DNA from: Flavobacteriales bacterium
GTDB lineage: Bacteria > Bacteroidota > Bacteroidia > Flavobacteriales > JANQLC01
NCBI GenBank assembly: GCA_028280815.1
Contig: JANQLC010000008.1
Span: forward strand, 8,492-72,491
Length of the DNA stretch: 64,000 nucleotides
Direction of reading: 5' to 3'
Made by a program: the position numbers and the translations under genes
In this document: in pieces, positions 8,546 through 51,733 of the stretch
How the letters are laid out: every line of letters begins with the position of its first letter
Numbering within the stretch: the first letter of the stretch is position 1
Notes under the pieces: generated by a model
Database searches by the model: none
The model's input: the letters and a program-made list of their open reading frames with translations, nothing else
What the model was told of the DNA's origin: nothing

Positions 8546-8589
8546 TAAAAACGCCGACCAAATCCCTTTGCTTATGCCCCTCAGTCGAT

Positions 8590-8975
8590 CGCATGGGACA
8601 AACCACCCCCTAGTGAAAGCAGGAATTAAACCCACCGACCGACCCAATCCGCCAAGCCAGTCCAAGCAAGCCAACCCATTCAAGCCACAACCGCAAAGCC
8701 ACCCTTTCAAGCCGACTCACCTAAGCAAGCCAATCCAAGTCCTAGGTCGATCAAATCAGGACAGCCCAAGCCGCCAAGCCAAGCAAAACAAGCCAAATCC
8801 GTTAGTCCAATCCAAACCGCTCAGGCAACCCAATCAAGAGAATTAAAACTACCGAGCCAAGTAAACCAAGTCAACCTATCAAATCCACCGACCGACCCAA
8901 TCCGTCAACCAACCTACGATATACACCAAATCGCCACCCACCGGCCAACCGATTCCGACAAATCGAACCGCGGAT
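8590..8975. repeat. strand-asymmetric intergenic island 1 (A+C-rich on + strand)
   Basis: My count of 8641-8700 is A21 C26 G9 T4. Contains a 20-bp direct repeat (8632-8651 / 8885-8904) and words shared with islands 2 and 3. Confidence 0.7.
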
Positions 8976-8981
8976 TGAGCC

Positions 8982-9281
8982 TCAGGCTTCACCCGCTGGC
9001 CCGCCAAAGTGAAAGGGCAAATCGCCTTCCGCAATTTCACCATGGCTACCCTCGTAACGCGCGAGGTTTTCCCGCAAAGCGCGGAGCAGGCGCTTGGCGT
9101 GCTGGGGCGTGAGAATAATCCGGGACTTGACTCTTGCCTTGGGGGTCCCGGGCAGCACCTTGACAAAATCTATCACAAACTCCGTATTGGAGTGGTTGAT
9201 AATGGCCAGGTTGGCGTAAATCCCGTCGGCCACCTCTTCGGTCAATTCGATATCGATCTGGGCTTCCCCTCGTTTTTCCAT
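8982..9281 (-). CDS. DUF3467 domain protein
   Basis: 99 aa. GIYANLAIINHSNTEFVIDF matches my memory of DUF3467. It sits in the conserved position directly after rpoC in Bacteroidota. Confidence 0.75.
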   Translation of the reverse strand: MEKRGEAQIDIELTEEVADGIYANLAIINHSNTEFVIDFVKVLPGTPKARVKSRIILTPQHAKRLLRALRENLARYEGSHGEIAEGDLPFHFGGPAGEA

Positions 9282-12200
9282 TATACGCTTTCGCTTACCT
9301 CCGCTTCAAAATCCACCGTGGTCGGGTCGTAGTCCGCCTTGGCAGCCACCGTGATATCCTCGTAGGCTTTCAGGCCGGTACCCGCCGGAATCTTATGCCC
9401 CACGATGACGTTTTCCTTTAAGCCTTCCAAGGAATCGACCTTGGCGCTCACAGCGGCTTGATTCAATACTTTGGTGGTCTCTTGGAAAGAAGCGGCGGAC
9501 ATAAAGGATTTGGTTTGCAGGGAAGCTCGGGTGATCCCTTCTAACACCGGCATGGCTGTGGCAGGAATCGCATCCCGAGCGGTGATCAAATTCCGGTCTG
9601 CGCGGCGAAGCAGGGAATTCTCATCGCGCAATTCGCGCGGCGTGACCATCTGGCCCGACTGGTACCGGGTGGAATCACCGGGATCGGTTACGACTTTCAG
9701 GTCGTAAATTCGATCGTTTTCCGCGGTGAAATCATTCCTGTGAACCACTTTGGTATCCAAGAAATGGGTATCGCCCGAGTCTTGAATCTCCACTTTTTGC
9801 ATCATCTGACGTACGATCACCTCGAAGTGCTTGTCATTGATCTTCACCCCTTGCAGGCGATAAACCTCCTGCACACCGTTTACCAAATACGCCTGAACAG
9901 CCGTAGGTCCCTTGATGGCCAAGATATCCTTGGGCGTTATAGCCCCATCGGAAAGCGGCATGCCCGCGCGGACGAAGTCATTCTCTTGAACCAATATCTG
10001 GTTGGAGAGTTTGACCAAATACTTCTTCAGCTCACCGGTCTTGCTCTCGACGATGATCTCGCGGTTACCCCGCTTGATCTTACCGAAGGAGACCACCCCA
10101 TCGGTCTCGGAGACCACGGCTGGATTGGATGGGTTGCGGGCCTCAAACAGCTCGGTCACCCGGGGCAAGCCACCGGTGATGTCACCCGTCTTAGCGGACT
10201 TGCGCGGTATTTTTACCAGGGTTTTTCCAGCCTTGATCGATTCGCCATCCCCGACGATGAGGTGTGCGCCTACGGGCAGGTTATAGACCTTTAACACCGC
10301 ACCGTCCCCATCGCGTATCGACAGCGAAGGAATGAGGCGCTTGCCCCGGGAATCGGTGATCACCTTTTCTTGGAAACCGGTTTGCTCATCGATCTCTACG
10401 ACAAAGGTGTTCCCTTGAATGATGTTATCGAACTCAACCTTACCAGCGGTTTCAGCGATGATCACACCGTTGTAGGGATCCCAGCTGCAAATCGCCGCGC
10501 CCTTCTTTAGCTCCTCCCCCCCTCTTACCTTTAAAAAGGAACCATAAGGGATGTGGGCTGTAGCCACTGTATTTTTGTGATTCGGATCGATCAACTTCAT
10601 CTCAGCAGAGCGCGAAATCACCACCTCTACCGCACGGCCTTCGTCGTCCTCGCTCGAAACGGTTTTCAAATCATCGAATGCTACCCGCGCATCCTGCTTG
10701 GCGACGATTTGGGATTCTTCCGCCACATGACCCGCTGTACCCCCGACGTGAAAAGTGCGCAAGGTGAGTTGCGTACCGGGTTCGCCGATGGATTGCGCCG
10801 CGATGACACCGACGGCTTCCCCCTCTTGCACCATCTCTCCCGTCGACAGGTTGCGCCCATAACACTTGGCACAAATTCCACTCTTGGATTCGCAAGTCAA
10901 AGGGGATCGCACTTCCACGCGTTCGATACCGGCTGCTTCAATCGCCCATGCCGTAGCTTCCTCAATTTGTGATCCAGCGGCGGCGATCAGCGCATCGGTT
11001 TGGGGGTGATACACATCGTTTAAGGCTACCCGGCCGAGAATGCGATCGAAGAGCGGCTCGATCACCTCTTCGTTCTTCTTCAAAGCGGTTACCTCGAGCC
11101 CGCGCAAGGTGCCGCAATCCGCTTCGCGGATGACCACATCTTGGGATACATCGACCAAACGACGGGTCAAGTAGCCGGCGTCAGCTGTTTTCAAAGCGGT
11201 ATCCGCCAGGCCTTTACGCGCACCATGCGTCGAAATAAAATACTCTAAGATCGAAAGTCCTTCCCGAAAGTTTGAAATGATCGGATTTTCGATGATCTCC
11301 TGGCCGCTCGCACCCGACTTTTGCGGTTTGGCCATCAAGCCGCGCATACCGGCCAGCTGCCGAATCTGTTCCTTAGACCCCCGTGCGCCGGAATCCAACA
11401 TCATATAAACGGAATTGAACCCCTGGTGGTCGGATGCCAAACGCTTCATGGTCAGCTCGGTAATCTGGGCGTTGGTGCTCGTCCACACGTCGATCACCTG
11501 ATTGTAACGCTCGTTATTCGTGATCAAGCCCATGTTGTAATTCGCCGAGATGGAATCCACCTGCGCATCGGCGGCTCGGGTCATCTCTCCCTTTTCTTCC
11601 GGGGCGATGATGTCGCCCAAACCAAATGACAAACCGCCTTTGAACGCATGGGTATAACCCAAATTCTTGATGTCGTCGAGGAATTTTGCCGTCGTCGGCA
11701 CATCTGTTTTTTTGAGGATGTCGGCGATGATCTCACGCAGGGCTTTTTTGGTTAAAATCTGGTTGATAAAACCCATTTTCTCAGGCACCACCTGGTTGAA
11801 CAAGACACGACCTACGGTCGTCTCGATCAACTTCGCCCTGCCGGTTTCAGGCGATTCCCATCTCATCTCGATGATGGCATTGAGCACTGCCTTACCTTCG
11901 TTGTAGGCTATGATCACCTCTTCGGCCGAATAGAAAATGCCGTTTTCCCCCTTTACCGGACACCGAGCCGTCGAGCGCCGGGCCTTGGTCATATAATACA
12001 AGCCGAGCACCATATCCTGAGAGGGTACGGCAATGGGGGAGCCGTTTGCGGGGTTTAGAATGTTGTGCGTAGATAGCATCAACAACTGGGCCTCTAAGAT
12101 GGCTTCCGGGCCGAGCGGGACGTGAACCGCCATCTGGTCGCCATCGAAGTCTGCATTGAAGGCCGTACATACCAACGGGTGCAGTTGAATGGCCTTCCCT

Positions 12201-13573
12201 TCGATCAACTTGGGTTGAAAGGCTTGAATGCCCAAGCGGTGCAGTGTTGGCGCTCGGTTGAGCAAGACGGGATGTCCCTTCAATACATTTTCCAAGATAT
12301 CCCAGACGACAGGCTCCTTTTTATTGATGATCCGCTTGGCTGATTTCACGGTTTTGACGATCCCCCGCTCGACCAGCTTTCGGACGATAAACGGATTGTA
12401 CAGCTCTGCAGCCATATCTTTGGGCAAGCCACATTCGTGCAGCTTCAATTCCGGGCCGACCACGATGACGGAGCGCGCCGAATAGTCCACCCGTTTGCCG
12501 AGCAAGTTCTGACGAAATCGCCCCTGCTTTCCCTTTAGGGAGTCGGAAAGCGATTTGAGGGGCCGATTGGAATCGGTTTTAATCGCGGAAAACTTTCTCG
12601 TATTGTCCAATAGCGAATCCACAGACTCTTGGAGCATGCGTTTTTCGTTTCTGAGAATGACCGCTGGCGCCTTGACTTCCATCAAGCGTTTCAAGCGGTT
12701 GTTGCGAATGATGACCCGGCGATACAAATCATTCAAATCCGAGGTGGCGAATCGACCCCCATCCAAGGGTACCAAGGGTCTCAATTCAGGGGGAATGACG
12801 GGGATGACCTTCAAGATCATCCACTCGGGCTTGTTCTCCACCCGGGCGTTGGCTTCGCGGAAAGCCTCGACGACCTGCAAGCGTTTTAAAGCCTCCAAGC
12901 GCCGCTGCTTAGAGGTTTCGTTATGGGCTTTGTGCCGCAATTCATAAGATAGGGCATCGATATCGAGACGCTGCAAGAGGTAAATCAAACACTCGGCCCC
13001 CATCTTGGCGATGAACTTATTGGGATCGGTGTCTTCGAGGTATTGATTTTCGGGGGGCAGGGATTCCGAGACATCGAGATATTCCTCTTCGGTTAAGAAA
13101 TCCATGGGTTGTAAGGCTTCCCCATCGGAGCGCTCGGCGATACCCGGTTGGACCACCACATACCGCTCGTAGTAAATGATCATGTCCAACTTTTTGGAAG
13201 GCAAACCCAACAGGTATCCGATCTTGTTGGGCAAGGAGCGGAAGTACCAAATATGGGCTAGGGGTACGACCAAATTGATGTGTCCGATGCGCTCGCGGCG
13301 CACTTTTTTCTCGGTGACTTCTACCCCGCAGCGATCGCAGATAATGCCTTTGTATCGAATGCGCTTATACTTGCCACAAGCGCATTCGTAATCCTTTACC
13401 GGACCGAAGATGCGCTCGCAGAACAAGCCATCGCGTTCGGGCTTGTGCGTGCGGTAATTGATGGTCTCGGGCTTGACGACCTCTCCATAAGACCGCTGCA
13501 ACAGGGTCTCGGGACAGGCTAAGCTGATAACGATCTCATCGAACTGCGCGCTTTGATTGTTTTTGCCCATCAT
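9281..13573 (-). CDS. rpoC: DNA-directed RNA polymerase subunit beta'
   Basis: 1430 aa with zinc motif [23 protein letters not shown] and catalytic NADFDGD. Confidence 0.97.
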
Positions 13574-13636
13574 AGCTATGACATATTTCTTACACCATTG
13601 ATGAACCCGGGTTCAGCCCCCATAGCAGGACGCGGG

Positions 13637-16600
13637 TCACTCCGATTTCAAGTCCACGTTGAGGGCTAGGCCCTGCATCTCGTGCAGCAATACGTTGAAC
13701 GACTCGGGAATCCCGGGCTCCGGCATGGCTTCGCCTTTGACGATGGCTTCGTAGACCTTAGCCCGGCCGACCACATCATCCGATTTTACGGTGAGCATTT
13801 CCCGCAAGGCGTAGGTCGCTCCATAAGCCTCGAGCGCCCAAACCTCCATCTCACCGAAGCGCTGGCCGCCGAATTGGGCTTTCCCGCCGAGTGGCTGCTG
13901 GGTGATCAAAGAATAGGGCCCGATGGAACGAGCGTGCATCTTATCGTCCACCATATGACTCAATTTTAGCATATAGATCACGCCGACCGTAGCGGGTTGG
14001 TCGAATCGCTCACCGGTGCCCCCGTCGCAGAGGTAGGTACGACCAAAACGCGGAATGCCAGCCCGATCGGTCAACCGGTTGATCTGATCTAGGGAAGCCC
14101 CGTCAAAAATGGGCGTGGCATACTTCTCACCGAGTCGCTTGCCCGCCCACCCGAGCACGGTTTCGTAAATCTGACCGATGTTCATGCGAGAGGGTACGCC
14201 CAAGGGATTCAATACCATATCCACTGGGGTGCCATCATCCAAGAAGGGCATGTCCTCTTCTCGGACGATACGAGCTACGATACCTTTGTTGCCGTGACGG
14301 CCCGCCATTTTATCCCCAACCCGCAACCTGCGCTTCTTAGCGATGTAGACCTTGGCCAATTTGACGACGCCAGCGGGCAGTTCATCCCCCACGGAAATGT
14401 TGAACTTTCGGCGGCGCAAAACGCCCTGTAGGTCGTTGACGCGGATTTTATAGTTGTGGAGCAATTCCTTGATCAAATCGTTTTTCGCCGAGCTCGTCGT
14501 CCAGGTGCCCTGGGTCAAATGGACGTAGTCGTCGACGCCGCTGAGCAGTTTTTGGGAAAACTTCACCCCTTTTGGAATGACTTCCTCCATCAAGTCGTTC
14601 TGTACCCCCTGGGCGGTTTTTCCCTGAACGATTTGGAATAGTTTTTCGATCAACACTTCGCGCAGTGCGGACAAGCGCTTGTGAAAGTCGGCCTCCAAGC
14701 GCTCCACCTCGAGCTTGTCCTTCGCACGTCTATGCTTATCCTTGATGCTGCGTTCAAACAATTTTTTATCGATGACCACACCGTTCAATGAGGGGGGGGC
14801 TTTCAGGGAGGCGTCTTTTACATCCCCAGCCTTGTCACCAAAAATCGCGCGCAACAGCTTTTCTTCTGGCGTGGGATCAGACTCACCCTTGGGTGTGATC
14901 TTTCCGATTAAAATATCCCCCGGTTGCACTTCAGCGCCAACGCGAACCATGCCGTTTTCATCCAACTCCCGAATGGCTTCTTCGCTCACATTGGGGATAT
15001 CGCTCGTCAACTCCTCCATGCCCAATTTGGTATCGCGCACATCGAGGGCGTACTCGTCGATGTGAATGGAAGTGAACAAATCCGCGCGAACCACGCGCTC
15101 TGAAACGACGATGGCATCCTCAAAATTGTATCCCTTCCAGGGCATAAAAGCAACCAATAGGTTCTGACCCAGGGCTAGTTCACCACCATGAGTCGCATAG
15201 CCTTCGCACAAAACCTGACCTCTTTTCACCGAATCGCCCAATTTGACAATCGGTCTCAGGTTGATACAAGTACTCTGATTGGTCTTTCTAAACTTGACGA
15301 GTTCGTATTCTTTTACGTCGTCGTCAAAGCTGACCAAACGCTCATCTTCGCTGCGATCGTATCGGATTTGAATCCGTTCTGAGTCGACGTAAACCACCTC
15401 GCCATCGGCCTGGGCGTTCAGCAAAATACGGGAATCGCTCGCTACCTGGGCCTCGAGGCCTGTCCCTACGATCGGCGAATCCGTCTTCAACAGGGGAACC
15501 GCTTGGCGCATCATATTGGATCCCATCAAGGCACGGTTGGCATCATCGTGCTCCAAAAACGGAATCAGGGAGGCCGAAATCGAAGCGATTTGGTTGGGTG
15601 CCACGTCCATATAATTCACCCGATCGGGATCCACCACCGGAAAATCGCCCTCGTCTCGTGCTTTGATCCGGTCTGAGGTGAACTTTCCCGCCTCGTCTAA
15701 AGCCGCATTGGCCTGTGCGATCACCTTTCCCTCTTCCTCTTCTGCGGTCAGGTAAACCGGCTCTTCAGAAAGGCGCACACCACCGGCTTCCACCCTGCGA
15801 TAAGGGGTTTCGATAAAGCCCATCTTATTGACTTTGGCGAATACGCATAGGGATGAGATCAAGCCGATGTTGGGCCCCTCAGGCGTTTCAATCGGACAGA
15901 GGCGACCGTAATGCGTATAATGCACATCGCGCACCTCAAAACCAGCGCGTTCGCGCGACAAACCGCCTGGCCCCAAGGCCGACATCCGGCGCTTGTGGGT
16001 GAGCTCAGATAGGGGGTTGGTCTGATCCATAAACTGGGAGAGCTGGTTGGTACCAAAGAATGAATTGATCACGGAAGATAGGGTCTTGGCATTGATCAAA
16101 TCGATGGGCGTGAACACTTCGTTGTCGCGTACGTTCATGCGCTCGCGAATGGTGCGCGCCATACGCGACAAGCCGACGCCAAACTGGTTGGCCAATTGTT
16201 CCCCCACCGTCCGAACACGGCGGTTGGACAAGTGATCGATATCGTCGACTTCGGCCTTGGAATTCACCAATTCTATCAAATACTTTACGATGGAAATGAT
16301 GTCGGCATTGGTGAGGACTTGCTTATCGAGGCTGACATCCAAGCCCAACTTTTTATTGATCCGATAACGACCCACGCCATCCAAGCTATAGCGCTGATCG
16401 GAGAAGAATAGTTTATCGATAATCCCCCGCGCGGTTTCCTCATCGGGCGGCTCGGAGCCGCGCAACTGCCGGTATATGTATGCGACAGCTTCCTTCTCTG
16501 AATTGGTCGGATCCTTGGCGAGGGTGTTGTGGACGATGGCGAAATCACCGCGCTGTCCCCCTTCCTGCTTGTGCAAGAAGATGGTTTTGACCCCGGCATT

Positions 16601-23526: not shown

Positions 23527-23556
23527 ACGCTGTAGGAACAGGAGGTAAATTTAATT

Positions 23557-23580
23557 CAATTCGCGGAAAAAAGCGAATTG
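23557..23580. promoter_or_regulatory. perfect 8-bp inverted repeat CAATTCGC-N8-GCGAATTG upstream of the recombinase gene
   Basis: Seen directly in the sequence, 31 nt upstream of ATG 23526. Could be an operator or a stem-loop. Confidence 0.35.
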
Positions 23581-23639
23581 ACAGGCACAGCTTTTCCTGC
23601 ATTTCTCAATTTTTTATCGCGTGGCCCAGGGTTGACCCG

Positions 23640-24470
23640 TCAGGCGTGGTCGTTCCAGTTCGATTGGGCCACATATACGGGATCGGGTTGGATACTTTGG
23701 GGGTGGATGGCTTGGGTTGCTGTGCTATTGCGTTGATTGCGTGGGTTGGGTTGTTTGATGTGCTTTGATAAGCATGACTCTTGCTGTTTTGGATGCTTGA
23801 GCGGATTGCTCGGTCTCTCTTGGTTTTGTCGCATGGGTTTGGTTGGCTCGTTGGGCGTGGTTGTTGCGGTTCGATTGGGCTACGTATCTGTGATTGGGTT
23901 GGTGCGTTGTTGTAATTCGGCCGGGCCGGGTTGGTTGCTTGGGTTGCGTTGGCGTTGCTTGCGTTGGCTGGATTGGATTGGGTTGTTTCATTGTCGGGTC
24001 GCTTTGCGTTGGCGGTTTTCTGTTGCGCTGTTTTGTCGTTGGGCGGATTGGGCTGGCTTGAGCGAAGTCGGGTCGATTGCTCGGGTTGTGTTGCAGTTGG
24101 ATGGGTGGATTGGGATTGTCTGTATTATTCGGTTTGGCGCGACTGCTCCGTCGGTGTGATTCGCAGACTCGGATGGGCGGGTGTTTTGTCGAGTTGTTTC
24201 GTCGCTGCTCAGGTGCGTTGTTGTGTTTTGCTATCGGTTGCGTTTGTGGGCTGTCGCATCCTTGGGTTGAATGGGTTGGTCAGCTTTGCGCTAGCCTGAG
24301 TTGCTTGGATGAGTTGGCTTGAAACGGTGGCTTTGCGGTTGTGACTTAGATGGATTGGTTTGAGTGGGTCGAATTGGCTGGGTTGGATCAGATGGATGAG
24401 CTGGGTTGGATGAGCTGGCTTGAAACGGTGGCTCAGGGCTTTCGGGTTATCGCTTTCGGAATGGGATCGG
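23640..24470. repeat. strand-asymmetric intergenic island 2 (G+T-rich on + strand)
   Basis: My count of 23941-24000 is G25 T24 C8 A3. It fills almost the whole 945-bp gap between the recombinase start and the uvrB stop. Confidence 0.75.
23670..24120 (+). repeat. inverted-repeat arm A (partner 29395..29865)
   Basis: My alignment to the reverse complement of 29395-29865 is colinear with a few indels, and roughly 85-90% identical by eye. Confidence 0.8.
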
Positions 24471-24471
24471 A

Positions 24472-26466
24472 TCAGGTTTTTGCCTTCCAGTATTGCCAGG
24501 CATCGCGCAGGCGGGCGGCTTGGACAAAATCTAGGGCTTTGGCCGCCTGTTCCATGGCTTTTCGGGTTTCGCGCACCTTTTTCTCTATATCTCCTTTGCT
24601 CAGGTAAGCGACATCGAGCTCGTCAGCCGCTTGGTCTCCGCCTGGGGTCGGACAACTGTCCTCCAAGGCTTTCTCAGGGCTTAAACCCACGTCTATCGCT
24701 TTGTGCAGCGGTTGGGGTGTGATGCCGTTCTCCCGGTTGTATGCGATTTGTCTCTCACGCCTGCGCTCGGTTTCTTCCACGGTTCTCCGCATGCTTTCCG
24801 TGGTTTTATCCGCATACATGATGACCCGACCGCTTACATTTCTCGCAGCGCGACCGGCGGTTTGCGTAAGGGCGCGATGGGAGCGCAAAAAACCTTCTTT
24901 GTCCGCATCGAGAATGGCGACCAATGACACCTCGGGCAGGTCTAAGCCTTCGCGGAGTAAATTAATCCCTACCAATACGTCAAAAACGCCTTTTCGCAAC
25001 GCCCGCATGATCGCCACGCGTTCCAATGTGTCGATATCGGAGTGGATGTAGCGCGAGCGAATGCGCATGCGATTCAAGTACTGGGTCAGCTCTTCCGCCA
25101 TCCGCTTGGTCAAGGTGGTGACGAGTACGCGTTCATTCCGCTCTGCGCGCCTTTGAATTTCCGCCATCAAGTCGTCGATCTGATTTTGACTGGGACGCAC
25201 ATCGATTTTGGGGTCGAGCAAGCCGGTGGGGCGAATCAGCTGTTCCACTAGCACCCCTTCGCTCTGCTGCAACTCGTAATCCGCGGGGGTGGCACTGACA
25301 AACAGCACCTGATTTTGCAGGGCTTCAAACTCCTCGAATCGCAACGGGCGGTTGTCCAAAGCGGCGGGCAGGCGAAAGCCGTATTCGACCAAGGTCTCCT
25401 TTCGGCTGCGATCGCCGCCATGCATGGCGTGTACTTGCGGTACGGTTACGTGACTCTCATCCACCACCATCAGGTAATCCGCGGGGAAGTAATCCAAGAG
25501 GCAAAAGGGGCGCATATGGGGTGCTCGCCCATCGAGGTATCGCGAATAATTTTCAATGCCGGCACAATAGCCGAGTTCCTTCATCATTTCCAGATCGAAT
25601 CGCGTCCGTTCTTCCAACCGCTTGGCCTCCAGATTTTTTCCCATATCCCTGAGGTATGCAACCCGATCGACCAGGTCGTGCTGAATCTGCTCCACAGCCG
25701 TTTTCAGGCGTTCGGGAGAAGTGACAAAGAGGTTGGCTGGATAGAGGTTGATCCGGTCATAGCGCTCTAAAACGGAATTGCGCTGCGGGTCAAAGGCCTC
25801 GATGGCTTCGATTTCCAAATCCCAGAAATGGACGCGAATAGCCACATCGGAATAAGCTGGAAAAATATCCACCGTATCTCCCCGCACGCGAAAGTTCCCC
25901 CGGCCGAAATCGGCTTCTGTCCGCGCGTATAAGCTCGATACCAATTGCAGTAAAAACCGGTTTCGCGGTAGGGTGTCCCCGCAGGCGATGGAGATGACAC
26001 TCTTGTGAAACTCGGTGGGATTGCCGATACCGTACAGGCAGGACACGGAGGCGACTACCAAAACATCACGCCTGCCGCTGAGCAGCGAAGAAGTGGTGCT
26101 CAGGCGCAGCTTTTCGATCTCTTCGTCGATGGACAAGTCTTTTTCAATATAGGTGTTCGTCACGGGGATGAAAGCCTCGGGTTGGTAATAATCGTAATAG
26201 GAGACGAAGTACTCTACGGCATTATCGGGGAAAAACTGCTTGAACTCGCCGTAGAGTTGTGCGGCCAAGGTCTTGTTGTGCGCCAATACGAGGGTAGGCC
26301 GTTGCAATTCTCGCACCACATTGGCTACGGTAAAAGTCTTGCCGGAGCCGGTTACGCCCAACAGGGTTTGAAATTTAACACCTTGTCTGAACCCTTCGGT
26401 GAGCTGCGCGATGGCTTGGGGTTGGTCGCCGGTGGGCTGAAAGTCCGAAACGAGCTCGAAATCCAT
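24472..26466 (-). CDS. uvrB: excinuclease ABC subunit B
   Basis: [28 protein letters not shown] Walker A, and C-terminal UVR motif (AARLRDAWQ). ATG 26466 is chosen. Confidence 0.96.
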
Positions 26467-26713
26467 TCGGCAAAAATACGAAGTATAGACCTCTCCCATA
26501 CCCAAGCAGTTCAAACACACAGCGGGCAAAAAAGCTTCAAATCGGTTAAAAATTCCCAATGGAAATTGCGAAAGACCTCATTTCGACATATCTTTATGCC
26601 ATGTAGAAAACAGAAGATGAGACGACCTATGCGCGAGGCAACCCCTAAGGCCAACAAGCCTAAAGCCCTGTTGGATACCCATGGCAGGCTGTGCAGCAAA
26701 TGATAAACACGAC

Positions 26714-27443
26714 ATGGAGGCTTATGCTAAACTAAGAGAGGGTGCTGACTTCTATCTGAGTGAATCATTTTATCATATCAATGAATCGCTACTTGATGAA
26801 TCAGCCGGTATCCTCTTTTCAAAATATCTCCAAGAGATTGATCCGACCGATGTTGATCGAAAAATAGCCGAGAGCGCAAGTATTCCCAAAAGCACTATAG
26901 AATTACTGCGATTCAACTGTAATGAAGTACTCAGTGAAGAGACGACGAGAAAAATGTCTGATGCGTGGCGCAAAGCGCAAATGATATCGCGATTTAAAAA
27001 CTACGGTTCCGGGCTTAACCATATTATAAACTCAATTCACATCCTCGGACATCTCAATAACTTTGGTTTTTTCATTGAAACTATAATCAATCGACATCTG
27101 ATGCTCTTACAAGACTCCAAATCTATAGACGGTTTGAGCTACTCGAGAATAGCTATTGCAAAAATATGTGGAGAAACTGGTCTTTATTTTCAAAGATGAT
27201 TTGAGTTCAAATACAATTCACCTCGACAAAATCACAAACTTATTCAGTTTGAGAAATAAGACCGTCCATTATACACCTCACAATGCAATTAGGCTTAAAC
27301 CGAAAATATCGGAATTATTGCAAATTTGGAAACAAGCGATAGCATTACTCAAAAGACTTGAGGCCATTGAAATGTTTGATGAAGATAAGTTCTCAAAGAG
27401 ATTAGACGAACGCGTAAAAGCCTTTACGCATAAATGGATGTAA
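26714..27443 (+). pseudogene. HEPN-like (Rx4H) protein gene, frameshifted at an A5 run
   Basis: Two overlapping ORFs (26681..27199 and 27156..27443) join if one A is added at 27160-27164 (..SRIAIAKKYVEKLVFIFKDD..). The second part carries LRNKTVHY, an RNxxxH motif. The region is low in GC. Confidence 0.55.
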
Positions 27444-27617
27444 AAAAGCTGGTTCTGCCTACAAAGGCTATCAGGCTTCAGACTGGGAAGAAGTATTTTA
27501 ACAGAAGGTTGAAGGTACCGAAAATCAAACTAAAACAACATAAAAACAAAGAGTCTTTATTGCGCTCAAGACGACAGTGCAAAGCAGAATCAGACGGTTC
27601 TCAGTCAACTGGCCCAC

Positions 27618-28709
27618 CTAAGCGCTACACCTAAAATGGACGACATCCCCGTCTTGTACGACGTATTGCTTGCCCTCTATGCGCATTTTTCCCGCTTCCC
27701 TCGCCCGAGCTGCCGAACCCTGGGCTATGTAATCCCCATAAGCGATGACCTCGGCGCGAATAAACCCCTTTTCAAAATGGGAGTGAATCACCCCCGCCGC
27801 CCGTGGCGCCCGATCGCCTTTGTGGATCGTCCAGGCGCGGACCTCTTCAGCGCCAGCTGTAAAGTAGGTCTGTAGGTTTAACAAGCGATAGGCGGATCGA
27901 ATCAACTGGGCGGCTCCCGGCTCCTCGAGTCCCATGTCTGTGAGAAACAGCTGACGCGCCGCCAAATCGTCCAGGGCTGCGATCTCCGCCTCAGCGGCGA
28001 CGGCCAAAACCAGCGTTTCAGACGGCTCGGCGGCAATGGCTCCCCGAAGCCGTTTCGTATGGGCGTTTCCGGTTTTTACAGCGCTTTCATCCACATTGCA
28101 GACATATAAGACGGGCTTGCTCGTCAAGAATTGAAAGCCATCCACCCGAGCGCGATCAGCTGCCGAGAATCCGATGCGCCGAACCGGCTCGCCCGATTCC
28201 AGATGCTGGCGGATAACGCGCAGCAGTTCCCATTCCTGCTGCGCCACCGGGTTGCCTGAACGGGCGGCGCGTCGCACCTTGTCCATATGCCTGACCGCCG
28301 TTTCCAAATCCTTGAGTTGCAACTCGAGATCGACGATCTCCTTATCTCGAACCGGATCGACCGAACCATCGACATGGGTGACATGGTCGTCTTCAAAGCA
28401 GCGCAATACGTGAATCAGGGCATTCGTCTCGCGGAGGTGTGCCAAAAATGAGTTGCCCAAACCCTCCCCTCGGCTCGCACCGCTGACGAGTCCGGCTATA
28501 TCCACCACTTCAACCGTTGCGGGAACCACACGCTGGGGTTTCACCAATTCGGCCAACTGATGCAGCCGCGCATCCGGCACCTGTACCCTACCGATATTGG
28601 GCTCAATCGTACAAAAGGGAAAGTTTGCCGCTTGGGCCTTCGCCGTGCTCAAGCTGTTGAAAAGCGTGGATTTTCCCACGTTGGGCAAGCCCAAGATGCC
28701 GCATTTCAT
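27618..28709 (-). CDS. ychF: redox-regulated ATPase YchF
   Basis: MKCGILGLPNVGKSTLFN start and a C-terminal TGS-like domain. ATG 28709 is chosen. Confidence 0.95.
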   Translation of the reverse strand: MKCGILGLPNVGKSTLFNSLSTAKAQAANFPFCTIEPNIGRVQVPDARLHQLAELVKPQRVVPATVEVVDIAGLVSGASRGEGLGNSFLAHLRETNALIHVLRCFEDDHVTHVDGSVDPVRDKEIVDLELQLKDLETAVRHMDKVRRAARSGNPVAQQEWELLRVIRQHLESGEPVRRIGFSAADRARVDGFQFLTSKPVLYVCNVDESAVKTGNAHTKRLRGAIAAEPSETLVLAVAAEAEIAALDDLAARQLFLTDMGLEEPGAAQLIRSAYRLLNLQTYFTAGAEEVRAWTIHKGDRAPRAAGVIHSHFEKGFIRAEVIAYGDYIAQGSAARAREAGKMRIEGKQYVVQDGDVVHFRCSA

Positions 28710-28728
28710 ACCGCCGATCAGATCACCG

Positions 28729-28736
28729 CAAAGATA
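28729..28736 (-). promoter_or_regulatory. candidate -7 box (TATCTTTG) for ychF
   Basis: TAnnTTTG match on the minus strand, 19 nt upstream of ATG 28709. Confidence 0.4.
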
Positions 28737-28789
28737 GGGGTTTTGAAAGCGCTCCATGGGGACAAACGCCAAAAAACGAGCCGCCTTTC

Positions 28790-30420
28790 AAGTCATCCCC
28801 AAGCGGCAAAGCAAAAAGCACACCGCTTTTCAAACCACTCCGCAGAGATAAATACCCAAAAGACAAGTCCCCATTTTCAAATTGACTTACAGAGACAGAC
28901 GCCAAAACAACCGGTTTCAGTCTTCAAACCCATACGAGGGGCAAAGACAAAAACAGCGCTCCTTTTCCAGTCAACACAAAAGAGCCAAACCGAAAAAACA
29001 AGCCAGCCCAGCCAACCCATGCAAGCCAATTCGCCCAGGCAACAACGCAACAGTGCAAACGACCCAATTAACGCAATCACGCATGCGTGACAAACAACCC
29101 GCCAACGCAATCAAACCAACCCAGTACACCGTATGGTAAAAAAGACCCACCCAAAAAACCCGACGAAAGACAAGGGACGAAAAACAACACAGCCCAACCG
29201 AGCAGTCGCAACAACCCACTGAACCACGCAGCGAGAGAAACCAGGTCTTTCTAAATGCCAGATAGAAACGCAAAAACAGTTCCGAGCGCGCAAAGGCTCT
29301 GAAAAGAGCTAAACCCATCCAAGCCAAGTCAACCCAAATCAAATGATGCAAACAAGCCTAATCCACCCAACCTACGCAAAGCGACCCAATCACCCGCACG
29401 ACAACCCAATCAAGCCATCCAATTGCAACCCAATCCGACTCCACTGAACAGTCCAATCCGCCCAACGACAAAACAGCGCAACAGCAAACCGCCAACGCAA
29501 AGCGACCCGACAATGAAACAACCCAATCTAAGCCAGCCAACGCAAGCAACGCAAAGCGAACCAAGCAGTTAAGCAACGCCAATGCAACCCAAGCAACCAA
29601 CCCGGCCTAGCCAAATTACAACAACGCACCAACCCAAAACCACCAACCCAATCACAGATACCTAGCCCAATCCAACCGCAACGACCACGACCAACCAGCC
29701 AACCAAAACCATGCGACAAAACCATAGAGAGACCGAGCAATCCGATCAAGCATCCAAAACAGCAAGAGTCTTGCTTATCAAAGCACATCGAACAACCCAA
29801 CCCACGCAAGCAACGCAATAGCACAGCAACCCAATCCAAGCCACTCAATCCAAATCCCGCATATAACAACTGTAGAAAAGACGAATGCAAAAAGCCGATG
29901 AAGGACAAGGGACAAAGACAACCCAACCTACCCCACCGACACGGCCAAGCCAGCCCTGGACTCGCCCAAGCCAATCAGCGGAAAAACAAACGCAAAAAAC
30001 TCGCCCGAACCGATCACGGGAAGGGCGAACGAGAAAAAACCCAACATGCGAAATCCCAAATGCACCCGTGCACAAACGAGAGCGGAATGACAACTTTCAA
30101 TTGACACCCATACACGCCAAACATAAAAACCCCACCCAGTGGACCCGACGAGGAAGAGCCCAATCAACACGACAACCCACGCAACGATAAAACAAACCCT
30201 TTTTCAAACTACTATGGCACAGGGATAAAAGAGCCGTCTTGACCGCTCCAAACCGCCACAAAAGGACAAGCGCAAAAAACCGGCCTTTCAAGCGCGGACG
30301 CGAATCGAGAAATAAGGAAGTGGAAAAACCTAGAGCGCGCAGCCATTCCACAAAGGATAAAGGCAAACGAATCCCCAACCGGGATAGTCGAGAATCCGCA
30401 TCTCCGCAAAAGCGGCTAAA
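28790..30420. repeat. strand-asymmetric intergenic island 3 (A+C-rich, T-poor on + strand)
   Basis: My count of 29401-29460 is A21 C24 T9 G6. It occupies most of a 1.77-kb gene-free gap between ychF and the transketolase genes. Confidence 0.75.
29395..29865 (-). repeat. inverted-repeat arm B (partner 23670..24120)
   Basis: See arm A. The ORF-track artefact peptides share MVAWVALALL..LAGLDWVVSLSGRFALAV.CCAVLSLGGL between 23931..24299(+) and 29358..29600(-). Confidence 0.8.
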
Positions 30421-30451
30421 GTCATGGGTGTCTTCCCACGCCTTAAAGGAC

Positions 30452-30459
30452 TATATTTG
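30452..30459 (+). promoter_or_regulatory. candidate -7 box (TATATTTG) for the transketolase genes
   Basis: TAnnTTTG match 18 nt upstream of ATG 30478. Confidence 0.4.
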
Positions 30460-30477
30460 CAAAAAAATGGAACCGTC

Positions 30478-31329
30478 ATGCGCAGTGTTGAAGAGATGCG
30501 AATGCTGGTCACGCAAACGCGCCGAGACATCTTACGAATGGTACACGCAGCCAACAGCGGACATCCCGGGGGGTCGCTGGGCACCACCGAGTTTTTTATC
30601 GCACTCTATCACGCCGTCTTACAGTATGATCCAGCGCATTTTACGATGGATGGAAAAGGCGAAGACTTGTTTTTCTTATCCAACGGCCACATCTCACCGG
30701 TGTATTACAGCACCTTAGCCCGGGCGGGTTATTTTCCAATCGCCGAGTTGTCCAGCTTTCGCCAAATCGATTCGCGCTTGCAGGGACATCCCACCACGCA
30801 TGAGGGCCTGCCCGGCATTCGCATCTCCAGCGGTTCCTTGGGTCAGGGCATGAGTGTGGCCATCGGTGCAGCACAAGCCAAAAAATTAAACGAAGACCCA
30901 CAGCTGGTCTACAGCCTGCATGGCGACGGCGAATTGGACGAGGGGCAAAACTGGGAAGCCATCCTGTACGCCGCCGGCAAAGGGGTGGACAACTACATCG
31001 CTACGATCGACTACAACGGCAGGCAAATCGACGGCGATACCGATGCGGTCATGCCTTTGGGGAATCTGCGAGCCAAATTCGAGGCTTTTGGTTGGATTGT
31101 GTGGGACGAGCCCGATGGAAACGACTTGAACTGCAACATCCAAACGCTGAAAAACGCCAAACGATCGACTGGCCAGGGCAAGCCCATCGCCATTCTCCTG
31201 CACACCGAAATGGGGCACGGGGTGGATTTTATGATGGGCACGCACGCCTGGCATGGCAAAGCGCCTGACGATGCGCAATTGGCCAGCGCCCTGGCACAAA
31301 ATCCGGAAACCAGACTCAGCGATTATTAA
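30478..31329 (+). CDS. transketolase, N-terminal (thiamine-diphosphate-binding) subunit
   Basis: SGHPGGSLG and GDGELDEGQNWEA motifs. This is a split transketolase. ATG 30478 is chosen. Confidence 0.92.
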   Translation: MRSVEEMRMLVTQTRRDILRMVHAANSGHPGGSLGTTEFFIALYHAVLQYDPAHFTMDGKGEDLFFLSNGHISPVYYSTLARAGYFPIAELSSFRQIDSRLQGHPTTHEGLPGIRISSGSLGQGMSVAIGAAQAKKLNEDPQLVYSLHGDGELDEGQNWEAILYAAGKGVDNYIATIDYNGRQIDGDTDAVMPLGNLRAKFEAFGWIVWDEPDGNDLNCNIQTLKNAKRSTGQGKPIAILLHTEMGHGVDFMMGTHAWHGKAPDDAQLASALAQNPETRLSDY

Positions 31330-44149: not shown

Positions 44150-44698
44150 CTTTTGTTAAAGCAGTCGCCTGTATATCGGTTTTTAAACACTGCAAATCCC
44201 CTGGGGTAAATCTGTAAAAGCAGGACTTATTTTTTTGCTCGTGTCCTTTCGTACAGTTTGAAAAACGGATTGGTTCCCTCACTGCATTCGAGTTGCAAAA
44301 GTCCCATGTAGGTCATCCATGGAGATTCCAAGGGTTGGTTTTTTTCATTTTGATTTATAAACTATATCACAATTATGAGATATATTAATTTACAACTACA
44401 GACAGCATATCATCGACAAAGGGTACAGGTCGCAATCGCGTAGCATTATAATGTGATGTGACAAAGGCCGCCAACCTCAAATCACGAGAAAAGAGATATT
44501 TCGTAATTTTGTATATCATCCAAGACTTATGGACTCCACACCCCATAGGCACAAAAGAAATGAATCGCGCCGCTAAAACAGCAGGGACCGAGAATCCCAA
44601 AACCGTCAAAGACCATGCGAAAAACAAATGGAAAACCCTTATCTTTAATGGGTCTAACCGCGCTGTGGGCCACCTGTTAGACGCAGCACACCAACACA

Positions 44699-48886: not shown

Positions 48887-50530
<1,644 letters not shown>

Positions 50531-50641
50531 ATAGACAAGACTCAAAGCGCATTTTATCGATCGCATACGATCACCTCTCCTATCTTACGCCTTATGTATA
50601 GCTGACTTTAGCTTTTCGATCACAGCTCAGCGGCCGATTTT

Positions 50642-51733
50642 TTATCTGATAATCTGCATTAATCTATCAAATACGTAAATCCTATTCCGCTTACGGCCCG
50701 TTACTTCAGTCAGTATCCCTTGTTTTTGAAACTTATCCAACAACTTATAAATCGTTTGATGGCTACTCGCCTTTACCTCGGTCTTTATGAGCTTAGTTGA
50801 AGTAATTGGGGTTTCAAATATCACATCCAAAAGCGCGATGGCATATCGCGAACGAAAACTGGATAACCGATCTTTTACCTCCTGATACAGTTCCAGCATA
50901 GCGTTGACTCGGTCTTGTGTATCCCGCTCTTGTACGCTTATCGATTTGAGGAAATGCCGGATCCAAGGCTCCCAATCGCCCGCTCGGTCGATCCCCCTCA
51001 ATAAGGCATAGTAATCATCCCGATTGCGCTCAAAGTATTCGCTCACATAGAGAACCGGATGCGGAAGCATCTTTTTTTCATATAGCATAATCGGTATGAG
51101 CGGCCGCCCGAGACGCTCATTACCATCTAAAAACGGGTGTATGGCCTCAAATTGATAATGGGCGATAGCGGCTTGAACCAACACATCGGGTTCATCATCC
51201 GAGTTGACAAACTTTTCCCAGTTCGAAATCAGCGCGTTCAGCTCTGAATCCTCCGGTGGTATGTAGTACGCATTTTCCTCGGTAGCGCCCGGCTTGGCAA
51301 TGAAAACCCGGACTTTTCTAAAATTGCCCCTATCTTTATTCGTTCCCCTTACGGAATCGAGCAATATGGCGTGCAGCTCTTTTATAAAATTCGCTCCAAT
51401 GGGCCTTTTTTCCAACAGCTCAACTGCATGGCGAATGGCTCTCCTATAGCTTATGATCTCTCGGATGTCCCGTTCTTTTGAATTGTCTTCCGTTATTTTT
51501 TCGGCTGCCTCATATTAGAACACTTCTTGTAGGCTGGCTTGCGTGCCCTCTATTTTAGAGCTCGCAACCGCTTCCTTGGTCAGTAAAGGAGATACCAACA
51601 AATATTGATTGGAGATATTGGCTAATAGCCCATTTAAATTCCCCAAAACCCTATTGACCTCGCCTATTTCTTTGATCATTGACGTATAGTTAACCCTGGG
51701 AGGCAATGCCTTTAACTTGTGCGCTGTAGTCAT
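50642..51733 (-). pseudogene. Fic family protein gene interrupted by one in-frame TAA
   Basis: Both ORFs are in the same frame: ..EAVASSKIEGTQASLQEVF-TAA(51517-51515)-YEAAEKITEDNSKERDIREIISYRRAI..HPFLDGNERLGRP.. and a C-terminal wHTH. The Fic motif has GNER instead of GNGR (GAG at 51118-51116). Confidence 0.75.

Follow-up and report, generated by a model that had tools for sequence, protein, structure and literature searches.

The 1.6-kb A+C-rich stretch between ychF and the transketolase gene tkt in our window (the whole 64,000-nt stretch of DNA analyzed) is real, non-coding, satellite-like repeat DNA, which is unusual for a bacterium. This stretch, referred to here as island C, is an insertion that is absent from relatives and was gained by one uncultured marine Flavobacteriales lineage. 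With moderate confidence, we favor reading it as part of a repeat family of the satellite or minisatellite kind, multi-copy, palindrome-free and restricted to this lineage, which became inserted and expanded between the divergent promoters of ychF and tkt. The boundaries of island C were set by alignment to the empty site of two relatives (L003 and L023). The site comprises the following features:

28762-30390, + strand (the A+C-rich strand): island C, the whole A+C-rich insertion, with the ychF and tkt promoters on either side; found by composition, ends by alignment
28729-28736, - strand: ychF -7 promoter box TATCTTTG, outside island C; TACCTTTG in L003
30452-30459, + strand: tkt -7 promoter box TATATTTG, outside island C; identical in L003
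28762-29000, + strand: left flank, five head-to-tail ~45-nt units; by unit listing and consensus
29000-30060, + strand: core of degenerate C2-3A2N words; by Fourier analysis, k-mer enrichment and TRF
30061-30390, + strand: right flank, less skewed, with three more terminator-like units; by unit listing and PWM
29400-29838, + strand: ~400-440-nt subunit, with an inverted paralogue at 24120-23708 in island B
29198-30184, + strand: block R, 987 nt; from Tara scaffold L026 and Logan k=31 contigs

Analysis of base composition revealed that the + strand of 28762-30390 is 40% A, 33% C, 17% G and 10% T (A 0.400, C 0.330, G 0.169 and T 0.101 for 28790-30420), compared with approximately 0.25 per base in the rest of the window. 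The A+C fraction of island C was 0.73, while all other 1631-nt windows averaged 0.519 ± 0.033 and reached a maximum of 0.60. These values bear out the depletion of T and G on the + strand described in a first-pass annotation, whose count for 29401-29460 (A21 C24 T9 G6) was exact and whose 1.77-kb gap was confirmed as 1768 nt from the ATG at 28709 to the ATG at 30478. Its description of the other gaps as far shorter, spanning tens to about 300 bp, did not hold: gaps of 469 and 945 bp contain sister islands, and some ordinary gaps measure 450-650 bp. At least three further skewed islands in the window had been overlooked, as had an inverted paralogue 5.3 kb away. Other intergenic DNA of the window carries no such skew (A+C 0.46-0.55). 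GC skew is negative across the whole window, with less G than C on the + strand throughout.

Period-3 power in island C was 2.1x, compared with 10-12x in ychF and tkt. Stops occur in all six frames, with at least two kinds per frame, and therefore no single codon reassignment rescues coding; the longest + strand ORF is 101 aa. Searches with two minus-strand ORFs of the island identified no homologues, returning either nothing or the query itself. The lack of a period-3 signal, the stops in every frame and the lack of homologues for the two ORFs searched support the earlier view that the ORFs called here are compositional artefacts, and a conserved coding frame with homologues, which would have spoken against the island being non-coding, was looked for and not found. 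T-poor DNA gives rise to long spurious ORFs, and one island ORF is already present in a public protein collection.

We also examined the RNA and promoter content of the island. No island match was found in Rfam at E ≤ 1, and the whole window at gathering thresholds yielded tRNAs only. Folding z-scores for island C relative to shuffled sequences were +1.03, +1.18 and -0.44, and RNA of the A+C-rich strand was essentially structure-free, with a minimum free energy of only -24 kcal/mol per 301 nt; a structured RNA, one of the possibilities raised earlier, thus found no support from either Rfam or folding stability. The median C/G ratio in 78-nt windows was 2.07 in island C, 2.58 in island B and 2.5 in island A, compared with 1.18 for the whole window, and 50% of the 78-nt windows in island C had a C/G ratio above 2 compared with 6.9% window-wide. 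Island C has the composition of a rut site (C-rich, G-poor and unstructured over at least ~80 nt). G-quadruplex and i-motif structures were considered and rejected, as there were no G3 motifs at loops of up to 7 nt and loops of 12 gave nothing notable. A TAnnTTTG box lies 19 nt before the start of each flanking gene, as had been noted, and both boxes are kept in relatives; the positions of these conserved boxes support the placement of the island upstream of both promoters rather than in a leader. Within island C, no TAnnTTTG promoter was found on the A+C-rich strand and one weak box was found on the other. Bacteroidetes-type promoter arrays on the G+T-rich strand were rejected, with only relaxed matches detected, because composition forces them.

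The sequence of island C is layered, comprising C2-3A2N words (4-5 and 9-14 nt), ~45-nt terminator-like units, the ~400-nt subunit and the 987-nt block. In the core, k-mer enrichment identified the words CCAA, CAACC, CCAATC, AAGCCA and ACGCAA, and Fourier analysis gave a dominant period of ~4.3-4.8 nt. TRF detected weak short arrays only (period 9-10, 2-8.6 copies, 63-90% matches, scores 31-42), for example at 29519-29598. The recurring words reported at first reading were recovered, with CAACCCAAT exact at 29402, 29426, 29519, 29644 and 29827 and near variants at 29584 and 29795, together with the second word type CCAACGCAA at 29102, 29492 and 29537. Short internal direct repeats numbered 15 compared with ~0.5 in shuffles. 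No inverted repeats of at least 12 nt (seed 7) were present within 28700-30480, and neither terminal inverted repeats nor subterminal hairpins were found at island C.

The ~45-nt units of the left flank take the form of an A-run, a C-rich patch and a T-run followed by CAA, with T-run anchors at 28786, 28827, 28874, 28915 and 28964; those of the right flank are anchored at 30095, 30201 and 30286. Spacing between units is 41-49 nt, and a PWM of the unit gave 7 matches in island C compared with 0.07 in shuffles. All eight units in island C run in the direction of the A+C-rich strand, as does the C>G core. A hairpin abutting the T-run was predicted in two of the five left-flank units; across 21 units, six to seven had a hairpin ending in or beside the T-run and six folded more stably than shuffles (z < -1), while the remaining terminator-like units had no stem and the mean folding z-score was -0.48. 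Genuine terminators of the host genome, such as that after eno, have a hairpin abutting the T-run, and judged by sequence the ~45-nt units look like worn copies of these intrinsic terminators.

At least four skewed islands are present in the window, three of which (A, B and C) are related by sequence; at least one more copy was seen in outside assemblies. The sister islands are:

8577-8981, + strand: island A, between the DUF3467 stop and the secDF promoter; by composition and shared words
23643-24457, - strand (the A+C-rich strand): island B, between the uvrB stop and the xerC-like start; holds the inverted paralogue of 29400-29838
50262-50583, + strand: island E, between fic and the true enolase start; by composition

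The words CAACCCAATC and the block AGCCACCNTTTCAAGCCNRCTCA are common to islands A and B. The 10-mer CAACCCAATC is present in eight copies in islands A, B and C compared with ~0.03 expected by our own estimate from island composition, and the 23-nt A/B block occurs three times compared with 0.01 expected. Island E has the same skew (A+C 0.71) with other words, built on a 15-nt AAGACCCAAAAACTT-type repeat. The paralogous copies in B and C are 81% identical overall and 93% identical in ungapped blocks. Indels of 27 and 14 nt between them each start with the 9-11 nt that follow; indels bounded by short direct repeats, the signature of slippage, are thus found between B and C. Substitutions were not transition-biased (13 transitions, 14 transversions), and mismatches involved all bases, falling at A in 8/27 cases in C and 4/27 in B; a template/variable repeat pair of a DGR was rejected, the mismatches not being adenine-specific. 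No reverse transcriptase or transposase was found among the window proteins scanned, which comprised most of the larger ORFs. Homology between copies fades gradually, from 99.8% to 95% and then ~60%, with no sharp ends.

The orientation of the islands relative to their neighbors was mixed. The A+C-rich strand of A and E is antisense to both neighbors, and island B comes immediately downstream of the uvrB stop, in the same sense as that gene, which has no other evident terminator. The G+T-rich strand has the sense of the downstream gene in A, C, E and an array found in a relative, and it is the leading or gene-sense strand in four of five islands, an agreement that is not significant because the islands are too few. 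Two further ideas were rejected. A replication terminus or KOPS-like polarity switch between B and C does not fit the negative GC skew throughout the window, and an invertible segment acted on by the neighboring XerC/D-like recombinase does not fit a gene that resembles housekeeping xerC/D or the ancestral adjacency of tkt and ychF. Inverted copies of the repeat lie on both sides of the uvrB segment, in which there are two low-GC orphan ORFs.

Comparison with relatives revealed that the pairing of ychF and tkt is kept in three of them, L003 and L004 (both 81% YchF identity) and L023 (70%), with gaps of 125-170 bp that carry the same promoter boxes and only ~65 bp where island C sits. The island ends (GGACAAACGCC and GAGAATCCGCA) may represent a diverged 10-11-nt duplication of GAAATCCGCC, the sequence of the empty site, with 7/10 positions matching. 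In a relative, a skewed array precedes nusB, a position at which just 106 bp are present in the window; this array shows the same skew as the islands with different words. Arrays therefore lie at different genes in the window and the relative, which argues against a gene-specific role. Terminator-like units also follow ychF in a relative. Skewed DNA makes up 5.3% of the window, compared with 0.07% of 1.07 Mb from 80 other Bacteroidota loci around ychF. There was no blastn match in phages or plasmids, and a viral scan gave none. A scan of one genome per species (185,579 species) with GCCAACGCAAAGCGACCC gave 18 matches, none relevant; they look like chance because none has a Flavobacteriales title and none lies in a comparable skewed island. 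A metagenome scan with the 23-nt A/B block gave no matches.

The islands were compared with independent assemblies. Logan and Tara assemblies from at least five samples reproduced 28758-29227, 29097-30100 and 30155 onwards, together with all of island A and the flanks of island B, at 99-100% identity; the island B flanks were confirmed by Logan contigs, and two Tara scaffolds spanned island A fully at 99.8-99.97% identity with no indel. There was accordingly no length polymorphism of island A between the window and the two Tara populations. These assemblies and the synteny of relatives support the ychF-tkt join, the first-pass annotation having named an assembly artefact as grounds for setting the island aside. 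In every island, short-read contigs are interrupted. Tara scaffold L026 matches 29198-30100 with 2 SNPs and ends there, its opposite end carries the 30-mer 30155-30184, and it departs from the window at 29197 and 30185; it gives block R a second context, in which R is followed by a 296-nt linker and R again in a cyclic path. Logan k=31 contigs end at 29227 and start at 30155, 30 nt beyond the L026 divergence points, and the R-linker-R path predicts both break points to the base. Given this second path in Tara and Logan, block R may be part of a ~1.28-kb (up to 1283-nt) tandem unit that was collapsed in the window assembly. Tara scaffold L027 contains a head-to-tail junction of the ~400-nt subunit; such higher-order head-to-tail junctions were seen in the outside assemblies L026 and L027 only.

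Taken together, island C is non-coding and absent from relatives, and its repeats are present at several sites in both orientations. Among the four options listed at first reading, which also included a long CA-rich or GU-rich transcript and a protein-coated region, the degenerate minisatellite gained support from direct repetition at the word level and at higher order and from slippage-type indels between copies, while structured RNA and strand-specific deamination did not. In the satellite reading, direct repeats would have allowed the island to grow through slippage during replication or through unequal recombination, and duplication or gene conversion would have spread copies among intergenic sites or homogenized them. 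Any A+C/G+T skew present in the seed words would be retained and amplified because all copying would be direct and never inverted, and such copying would be the satellite route to strand asymmetry. The island would have no sequence-specific function and would be tolerated because it lies upstream of both promoters. As judged from its sequence, the repeat family is probably neutral, with no evidence of function. Two side effects are likely: any + strand transcript would be unstructured, C-rich RNA of the Rho-loading kind, and the G+T-rich strand would be single-stranded DNA of the kind preferred by RecA. Against the satellite reading, no length polymorphism was seen in island A, and the inverted transfer of a 0.4-1-kb block is left without an explanation; furthermore, in inert DNA the shared direction of the eight units and the C>G core would have to be coincidental, which counts against neutrality. 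The same skew with other words in island E and in the relative's array hints that composition, rather than a founder motif, is generated or selected. We give little weight to the stronger proposal that this is a true bacterial satellite, palindrome-free and skewed, with ~0.4- and 1.28-kb units amounting to several percent of the genome and with the composition itself generated or selected. If so, it would imply either strand-specific copying by a dedicated process, or a role as a one-directional transcription barrier or RecA-favored recombination site, the latter shaping rearrangement and gene gain.

The main rival to the satellite reading is a one-directional transcription barrier or insulator that would shield the promoter lying downstream (that of tkt for C and of xerC for B), in which transcripts running in the A+C-rich direction would meet tandem terminator-like hairpins and then ~1 kb of C-rich, G-poor, unstructured RNA where Rho would load. 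This would fit the high C/G medians of A, B and C, the weak folding of the A+C-rich-strand RNA, the shared orientation of the eight units in island C, the six to seven of 21 units with a hairpin and T-run, and the positions of island B after uvrB in the sense direction and of the units after ychF in a relative; rut sites are likewise commonly described as C-rich, G-poor, unstructured RNA (PMC6407284). However, the orientation of the islands is inconsistent, with A and E antisense to both neighbors, ~80 nt suffices for rut whereas the island is 1.6 kb, most units are without a hairpin, relatives do without anything at the site, and the window has no rho gene. We therefore regard a barrier as unlikely. 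A non-autonomous mobile element that relies on an enzyme encoded at another locus for mobilization in trans and inserts strand-specifically upstream of promoters, possibly via a single-stranded intermediate, seems to us decidedly unlikely: there are no terminal inverted repeats or subterminal hairpins, homology fades gradually instead of ending, the scan of window proteins (most of the larger ORFs) turned up neither a transposase nor a reverse transcriptase, no phage, plasmid or viral match was obtained and none among the 185,579 species genomes, and the putative target duplication agrees at only 7/10 positions. The same lack of subterminal hairpins led us to reject IS200/IS605-like and IS91-like single-strand elements. 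Several observations do suit a mobile element, namely the multiple copies in both orientations, the different intergenic sites in the window genome and the relative, the 987-nt block in a second context 2 SNPs apart, the possible GAAATCCGCC duplication, and the cyclic path, which could equally be a circle.

The remaining alternatives fared less well. It is very improbable that the island is a gene for a long unstructured non-coding RNA, whether an A+C-rich sponge for S1, Csp or other single-strand binders or a G+U-rich leader of ychF, secDF or eno. The structure-free A+C-rich strand and the sense orientation of the G+T-rich strand to the downstream gene in A, C, E and the relative's array point in this direction, and binding of S1, Csp and CsrA has been proposed for TAACTGA arrays (PMC4679880). 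Nevertheless, the A+C-rich strand has no TAnnTTTG box, each flanking gene is served by a promoter of its own 19 nt from its start, neither excess structure nor covariation is present, the position varies between relatives, and the four-of-five orientation agreement is not significant. Strand-specific hypermutation of pre-existing DNA (C to T and A to G on the minus strand), the deamination process suggested earlier, is largely refuted and highly improbable. The skew of A, C and E (G+T on the minus strand) does follow the window-wide replication skew, and islands with unrelated words share the same composition; but the polarity of B is opposite, the paralogues differ by 13 transitions and 14 transversions, other intergenic DNA is unskewed, and relatives have no ancestral sequence, their ~65 bp at the site meaning that there was no earlier DNA to mutate. 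It is scarcely credible that the island is an artefact or chimera of assembly, or a protein-coding gene that has decayed or been recoded. Contigs break inside every island and the window path through R is one of at least two, but Logan and Tara reproduce the segments named above at 99-100% identity and synteny backs the ychF-tkt join; T-poor DNA yields long ORFs, though spurious ones, with no period-3 signal, stops in every frame and no homologues of the two ORFs searched.

The islands were also compared with known repeat systems. Cyanobacterial STRR repeats are intergenic heptamer repeats comparable to those of Flavobacteriia. TAACTGA-type heptamer arrays occur in Flavobacteriia, cyanobacteria and Beggiatoaceae; in Flavobacteriia these direct-repeat arrays are intergenic, close relatives have a short stretch free of repeats at the corresponding place (in Gramella and Aequorivita the array sites are empty in the closest relative with the gene neighborhood conserved), and contigs often end inside them (PMC4679880). 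Like the TAACTGA and STRR arrays, our islands consist of direct, non-palindromic short repeats that fill intergenic regions and break contigs. Unlike them, island C has a degenerate 4-5/9-nt C2-3A2N word as its unit, extreme skew, kilobase size, 400-1283-nt units and dispersed paralogues, and it lies upstream of promoters whereas heptamer arrays usually adjoin start codons; TAACTGA itself is absent from both strands of the island. A TAACTGA-type array was seen in another Bacteroidota contig (L096). Eukaryotic-type satellites consist of short words nested in tandem units, with strand asymmetry, and evolve by slippage and unequal exchange. The island resembles them in its nested hierarchy, strong strand asymmetry and probable growth by direct duplication, and the word CAACCCAA resembles ciliate C-strand telomeric repeats such as C4A2; unlike satellite and telomeric repeats, the island is bacterial, interstitial and highly degenerate, with no telomerase or reverse transcriptase context. 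The slippage-prone tetranucleotide repeats of Haemophilus influenzae (CCAA, CAAT, CAAC and GCAA) form perfect tracts in or just upstream of genes and switch their expression (PMC2651432). The same A/C-rich tetranucleotides dominate the island core, but the island differs in its degeneracy, its 1.6-kb length and its location outside any transcription unit. REP/BIME, Correia/NEMIS, RUP and MITEs are defined by palindromes or terminal inverted repeats. The island is like REP/BIME, Correia/NEMIS and RUP in being multi-copy, non-coding, intergenic, lineage-specific and disruptive to short-read assemblies, and unlike them in having no inverted repeat at all and being 10-40 times longer. The RNA of the island is C>G, G-poor, unstructured and untranslated, like rut regions (PMC6407284), whereas a rut site is ~80 nt within or after a transcription unit and only island B is so placed. 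This likeness concerns how the RNA would work, not membership of a class.

Satellite-like DNA is considered scarce in bacterial genomes. In this window, kilobase-scale skewed repeat DNA accounts for ~5% of a core housekeeping region (rpoBC, ribosomal proteins, tuf and secY), a level roughly 75 times that around ychF in other Bacteroidota. If this extends genome-wide, it would provide a natural case for the origin and tolerance of satellites in a compact genome and would show whether satellite DNA affects transcription polarity or recombination. Such islands break short-read assemblies, may be collapsed in MAGs and yield spurious ORF calls. The longest enolase ORF reaches ~94 codons upstream into island E, and longest-ORF callers would therefore over-extend enolase.

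Island C, the A+C-rich stretch between the divergent genes ychF (minus strand) and tkt (transketolase, plus strand), had base fractions of A 0.40, C 0.33, G 0.17 and T 0.10 over 28790-30420, compared with approximately 0.25 per base in the remaining window. Its A+C content was 0.73, versus 0.519 +/- 0.033 (maximum 0.60) for all other 1631-nt windows. These values agree with the first-pass annotation, which had described a T-poor and G-poor gap; its hand count for 29401-29460 (A21 C24 T9 G6) was exact on recount, its 1.77-kb ATG-to-ATG gap measured 1768 nt, and its recurring words were found at the positions it listed. TAnnTTTG boxes are located 19 nt 5' of both start codons and are conserved in relatives; thus island C lies upstream of both promoters, as had been proposed. 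Analysis of repeats revealed 15 short direct repeats compared with approximately 0.5 in composition-matched shuffles (~30-fold), no inverted repeats, and a strongest periodicity of 4.3-4.8 nt. The core (29000-30060) is degenerate C2-3A2N sequence enriched for CCAA (2.2-fold), CAATC (7-fold) and CCAATC (14-fold). The flanks contain ~45-nt units (A-run / C-patch / T-run-CAA), with five in the left flank at a spacing of 41-49 nt and three in the right, and a PWM built from the units matched island C 7 times versus 0.07 in shuffles. A hairpin abuts the T-run in about one-third of the units, resembling real terminators of the genome such as that after eno; the units may be worn, amplified copies of terminator-like modules. 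Single copies were also identified outside the islands at 44210-44270 and 45297 (minus strand). One of them, located after aroB, contains the hairpin AGGAC-N16-GTCCT and has almost the same form as a unit (GAAGGGAC-TTATTTTTTT-GTCCTTC) of an array in the relative L003.

By its YchF, the organism is an uncultured member of the Flavobacteriales, and its closest relatives were MAGs at 81% YchF identity. The gene order HSDR_N_2 - tktC - tktN <-> ychF was kept in L003 (GCA_044670265.1), L004 (GCA_036881805.1) and L023 (a 70% relative), with a divergent gap of just 125-170 bp. Junction alignment placed island C at 28762-30390, between sequences that adjoin each other in the relative, and island C is an insertion specific to this lineage. 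L003 carries a G+T-rich array of 600 bp upstream of nusB (L003 1-600) with ten PWM matches, at a site where the window has only 106 bp. The differing sites in L003 and the window suggest rapid gain and loss of arrays within this lineage. Two or three further terminator-like units follow ychF in L003 (11300-11470).

Three other intergenic gaps in the window were similarly skewed.

Skewed sister islands in the window
8577-8981: island A, skewed intergenic stretch between DUF3467 and secDF
23643-24457: island B, opposite polarity, between uvrB and an XerC/D-like gene
50262-50583: island E, skewed intergenic stretch between fic and eno

Words such as CAACCCAATC are common to islands A, B and C, and the 23-nt block AGCCACCNTTTCAAGCCNRCTCA is common to A and B (3 occurrences versus 0.01 expected). 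Positions 24120-23708 of island B form an inverted paralogue of 29400-29838 in island C, with 93% identity within blocks, and the ychF/tkt island is one member of a family. Island E matches the others in composition but is built from other words; the remaining intergenic gaps lacked skew. Skewed segments of at least 250 bp made up 5.3% of the window compared with 0.07% of the 1.07 Mb covered by 80 ychF loci of other Bacteroidota. The latter contained two such segments, one a TAACTNA-type array and the other without a listed ORF, which we suspect to be coding on the opposite strand. Island A has a private 31-nt direct repeat (8625-8655, 8878-8908 and 8931-8961; 90% and 68% identity), and Logan contigs break at 8867, adjoining its second copy. 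A perfect 9-bp hairpin (TCAATTCGC / GCGAATTGA, loop GGAAAAAA) occupies 23556-23585, in the stretch from island B to the start codon of the xerC-like gene.

Independent assemblies bear on whether the feature is an artefact. Several Tara metagenome assemblies (scaffolds L026, L027, L030 and L031) contain the same organism at 99-100% identity, as do runs SRR20820732, SRR20820734 and SRR20820735 (Logan contigs L001, L002, L024, L025, L028, L029 and L112). Over 24022-29227 and 8867-13691, and from 30155 onward, the window is matched at 100% identity by contigs of two or three Logan runs, and Tara scaffolds spanned island A entirely (99.8-99.97% identity, no indel). L026 covers 29097-30100, is identical over 29198-30100 except for 2 SNPs, and diverges at 29197; its other end contains the 30-mer 30155-30184, diverges at 30185 and returns through a 296-nt linker into 29198. 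The Logan k=31 contigs stop at 29227 (29197+30) and resume at 30155 (30185-30), precisely the break points that the second path, seen in L026, predicts. In the same samples, a 987-nt block R (29198-30184) therefore belongs to a cycle R-linker-R, most simply explained as a tandem unit of ~1.28 kb passed only once by the window assembly; a second locus or a circle may be the alternative. L027 contains a head-to-tail junction of a ~400-nt subunit common to islands B and C. On these assemblies, island C is not an artefact, although its copy number is uncertain. Coding tests were likewise negative: period-3 power was 2.1-fold above background, compared with 10-12-fold for ychF and tkt, and stops occurred in 6/6 frames with at least two kinds per frame, so that no single codon reassignment opens a frame. 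Protein searches with two minus-strand ORFs found no homologues, consistent with the earlier view that the ORFs are a by-product of missing T or A; an artefact or a coding sequence is the least probable of the explanations considered. One such 80-aa spurious ORF (29358-29600, minus strand) has already entered a public collection as a predicted protein. An Rfam search of island C at E<=1 gave no match, the G+U-rich strand folded a little less stably than shuffled sequence (z +1.0 and +1.2), and A+C-rich strand RNA was almost without structure (-24 kcal/mol per 301 nt, z -0.4). Island C is therefore non-coding and not a structured RNA; an unstructured RNA, compatible with these folds, is improbable.

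Among the four classes first suggested, a minisatellite gained support from direct repeats and slippage-type indels, while structured RNA and strand-specific deamination did not. Indels of 27 nt and 14 nt between islands B and C each start with the 9-11 nt that follow, a pattern characteristic of slippage, or of unequal exchange, at direct repeats. Substitutions comprised 13 transitions and 14 transversions, and this ratio, with no ancestral sequence at the site, disfavours deamination; hypermutation is accordingly very improbable. On balance, we lean towards a lineage-specific, palindrome-free satellite or minisatellite family without sequence-specific function. Such a family would be seeded by A/C-rich words and terminator-like modules, expanded via direct duplication, keeping and amplifying strand skew, and copied or homogenised between permissive intergenic sites. 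The main rival, a one-directional transcription barrier, is unlikely: the A+C-rich strand has accepted Rho loading features (C/G about 2-2.6, no structure), every unit of island C is co-oriented with it and island B lies directly after uvrB, but islands A and E are wrongly oriented and relatives need nothing at the tkt/ychF site. A trans-mobilised element is somewhat more doubtful still; the homology of island C with the L026 copy decays leftwards from 99.8% to 95% to about 60%, which resembles an older duplication later altered by gene conversion rather than a transposon end. Island E and the L003 array share skew but not words, which weakens a pure founder-motif account of the favoured satellite family and keeps a more novel reading alive. 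No function is proven for island C, and probably none exists.

Island C is real and unusual, but its kind, bacterial intergenic direct-repeat arrays, is already known. Among published systems, heptamer direct-repeat arrays in Flavobacteriia come closest; like the islands, they occupy intergenic DNA that is short in the nearest relatives, and they break contigs (PMC4679880). The islands differ from known arrays in their extreme amino/keto skew, kilobase size, unit hierarchy and dispersed paralogues. In an unrelated Bacteroidota metagenome contig (L096 5984-6382), TAACTGA is among the AATAACTNA-type repeats of a ~130-bp array located just after the htpG terminator; this array apparently belongs to the published TAACTGA heptamer family.

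Between uvrB and ychF, a segment (26681-27443, plus strand) with the inverted copies of the island B/C repeat on either side contains two low-GC ORFs (GC 0.34-0.40; 172 and 95 aa) that overlap at 27156-27199 in different frames. They had no match in Pfam, NCBIfam or PADLOC and are absent from relatives, where other genes follow ychF; they appear to have been acquired recently and may be a single frameshifted gene. The longest enolase ORF (48887-50482, minus strand; 531 aa, TTG start) extends upstream by ~94 codons, reaching into island E on its G+T-rich strand. Since Pfam Enolase_N starts at residue 95, the true start is near 50200, and the extension is spurious, a product of skewed DNA with few stops. 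A Fic-domain protein encoded immediately upstream of island E (50642-51415, minus strand) matches PADLOC SoFic (2.4e-82) only at profile positions 110-358 of 361, and thus lacks the N-terminal part of the model.
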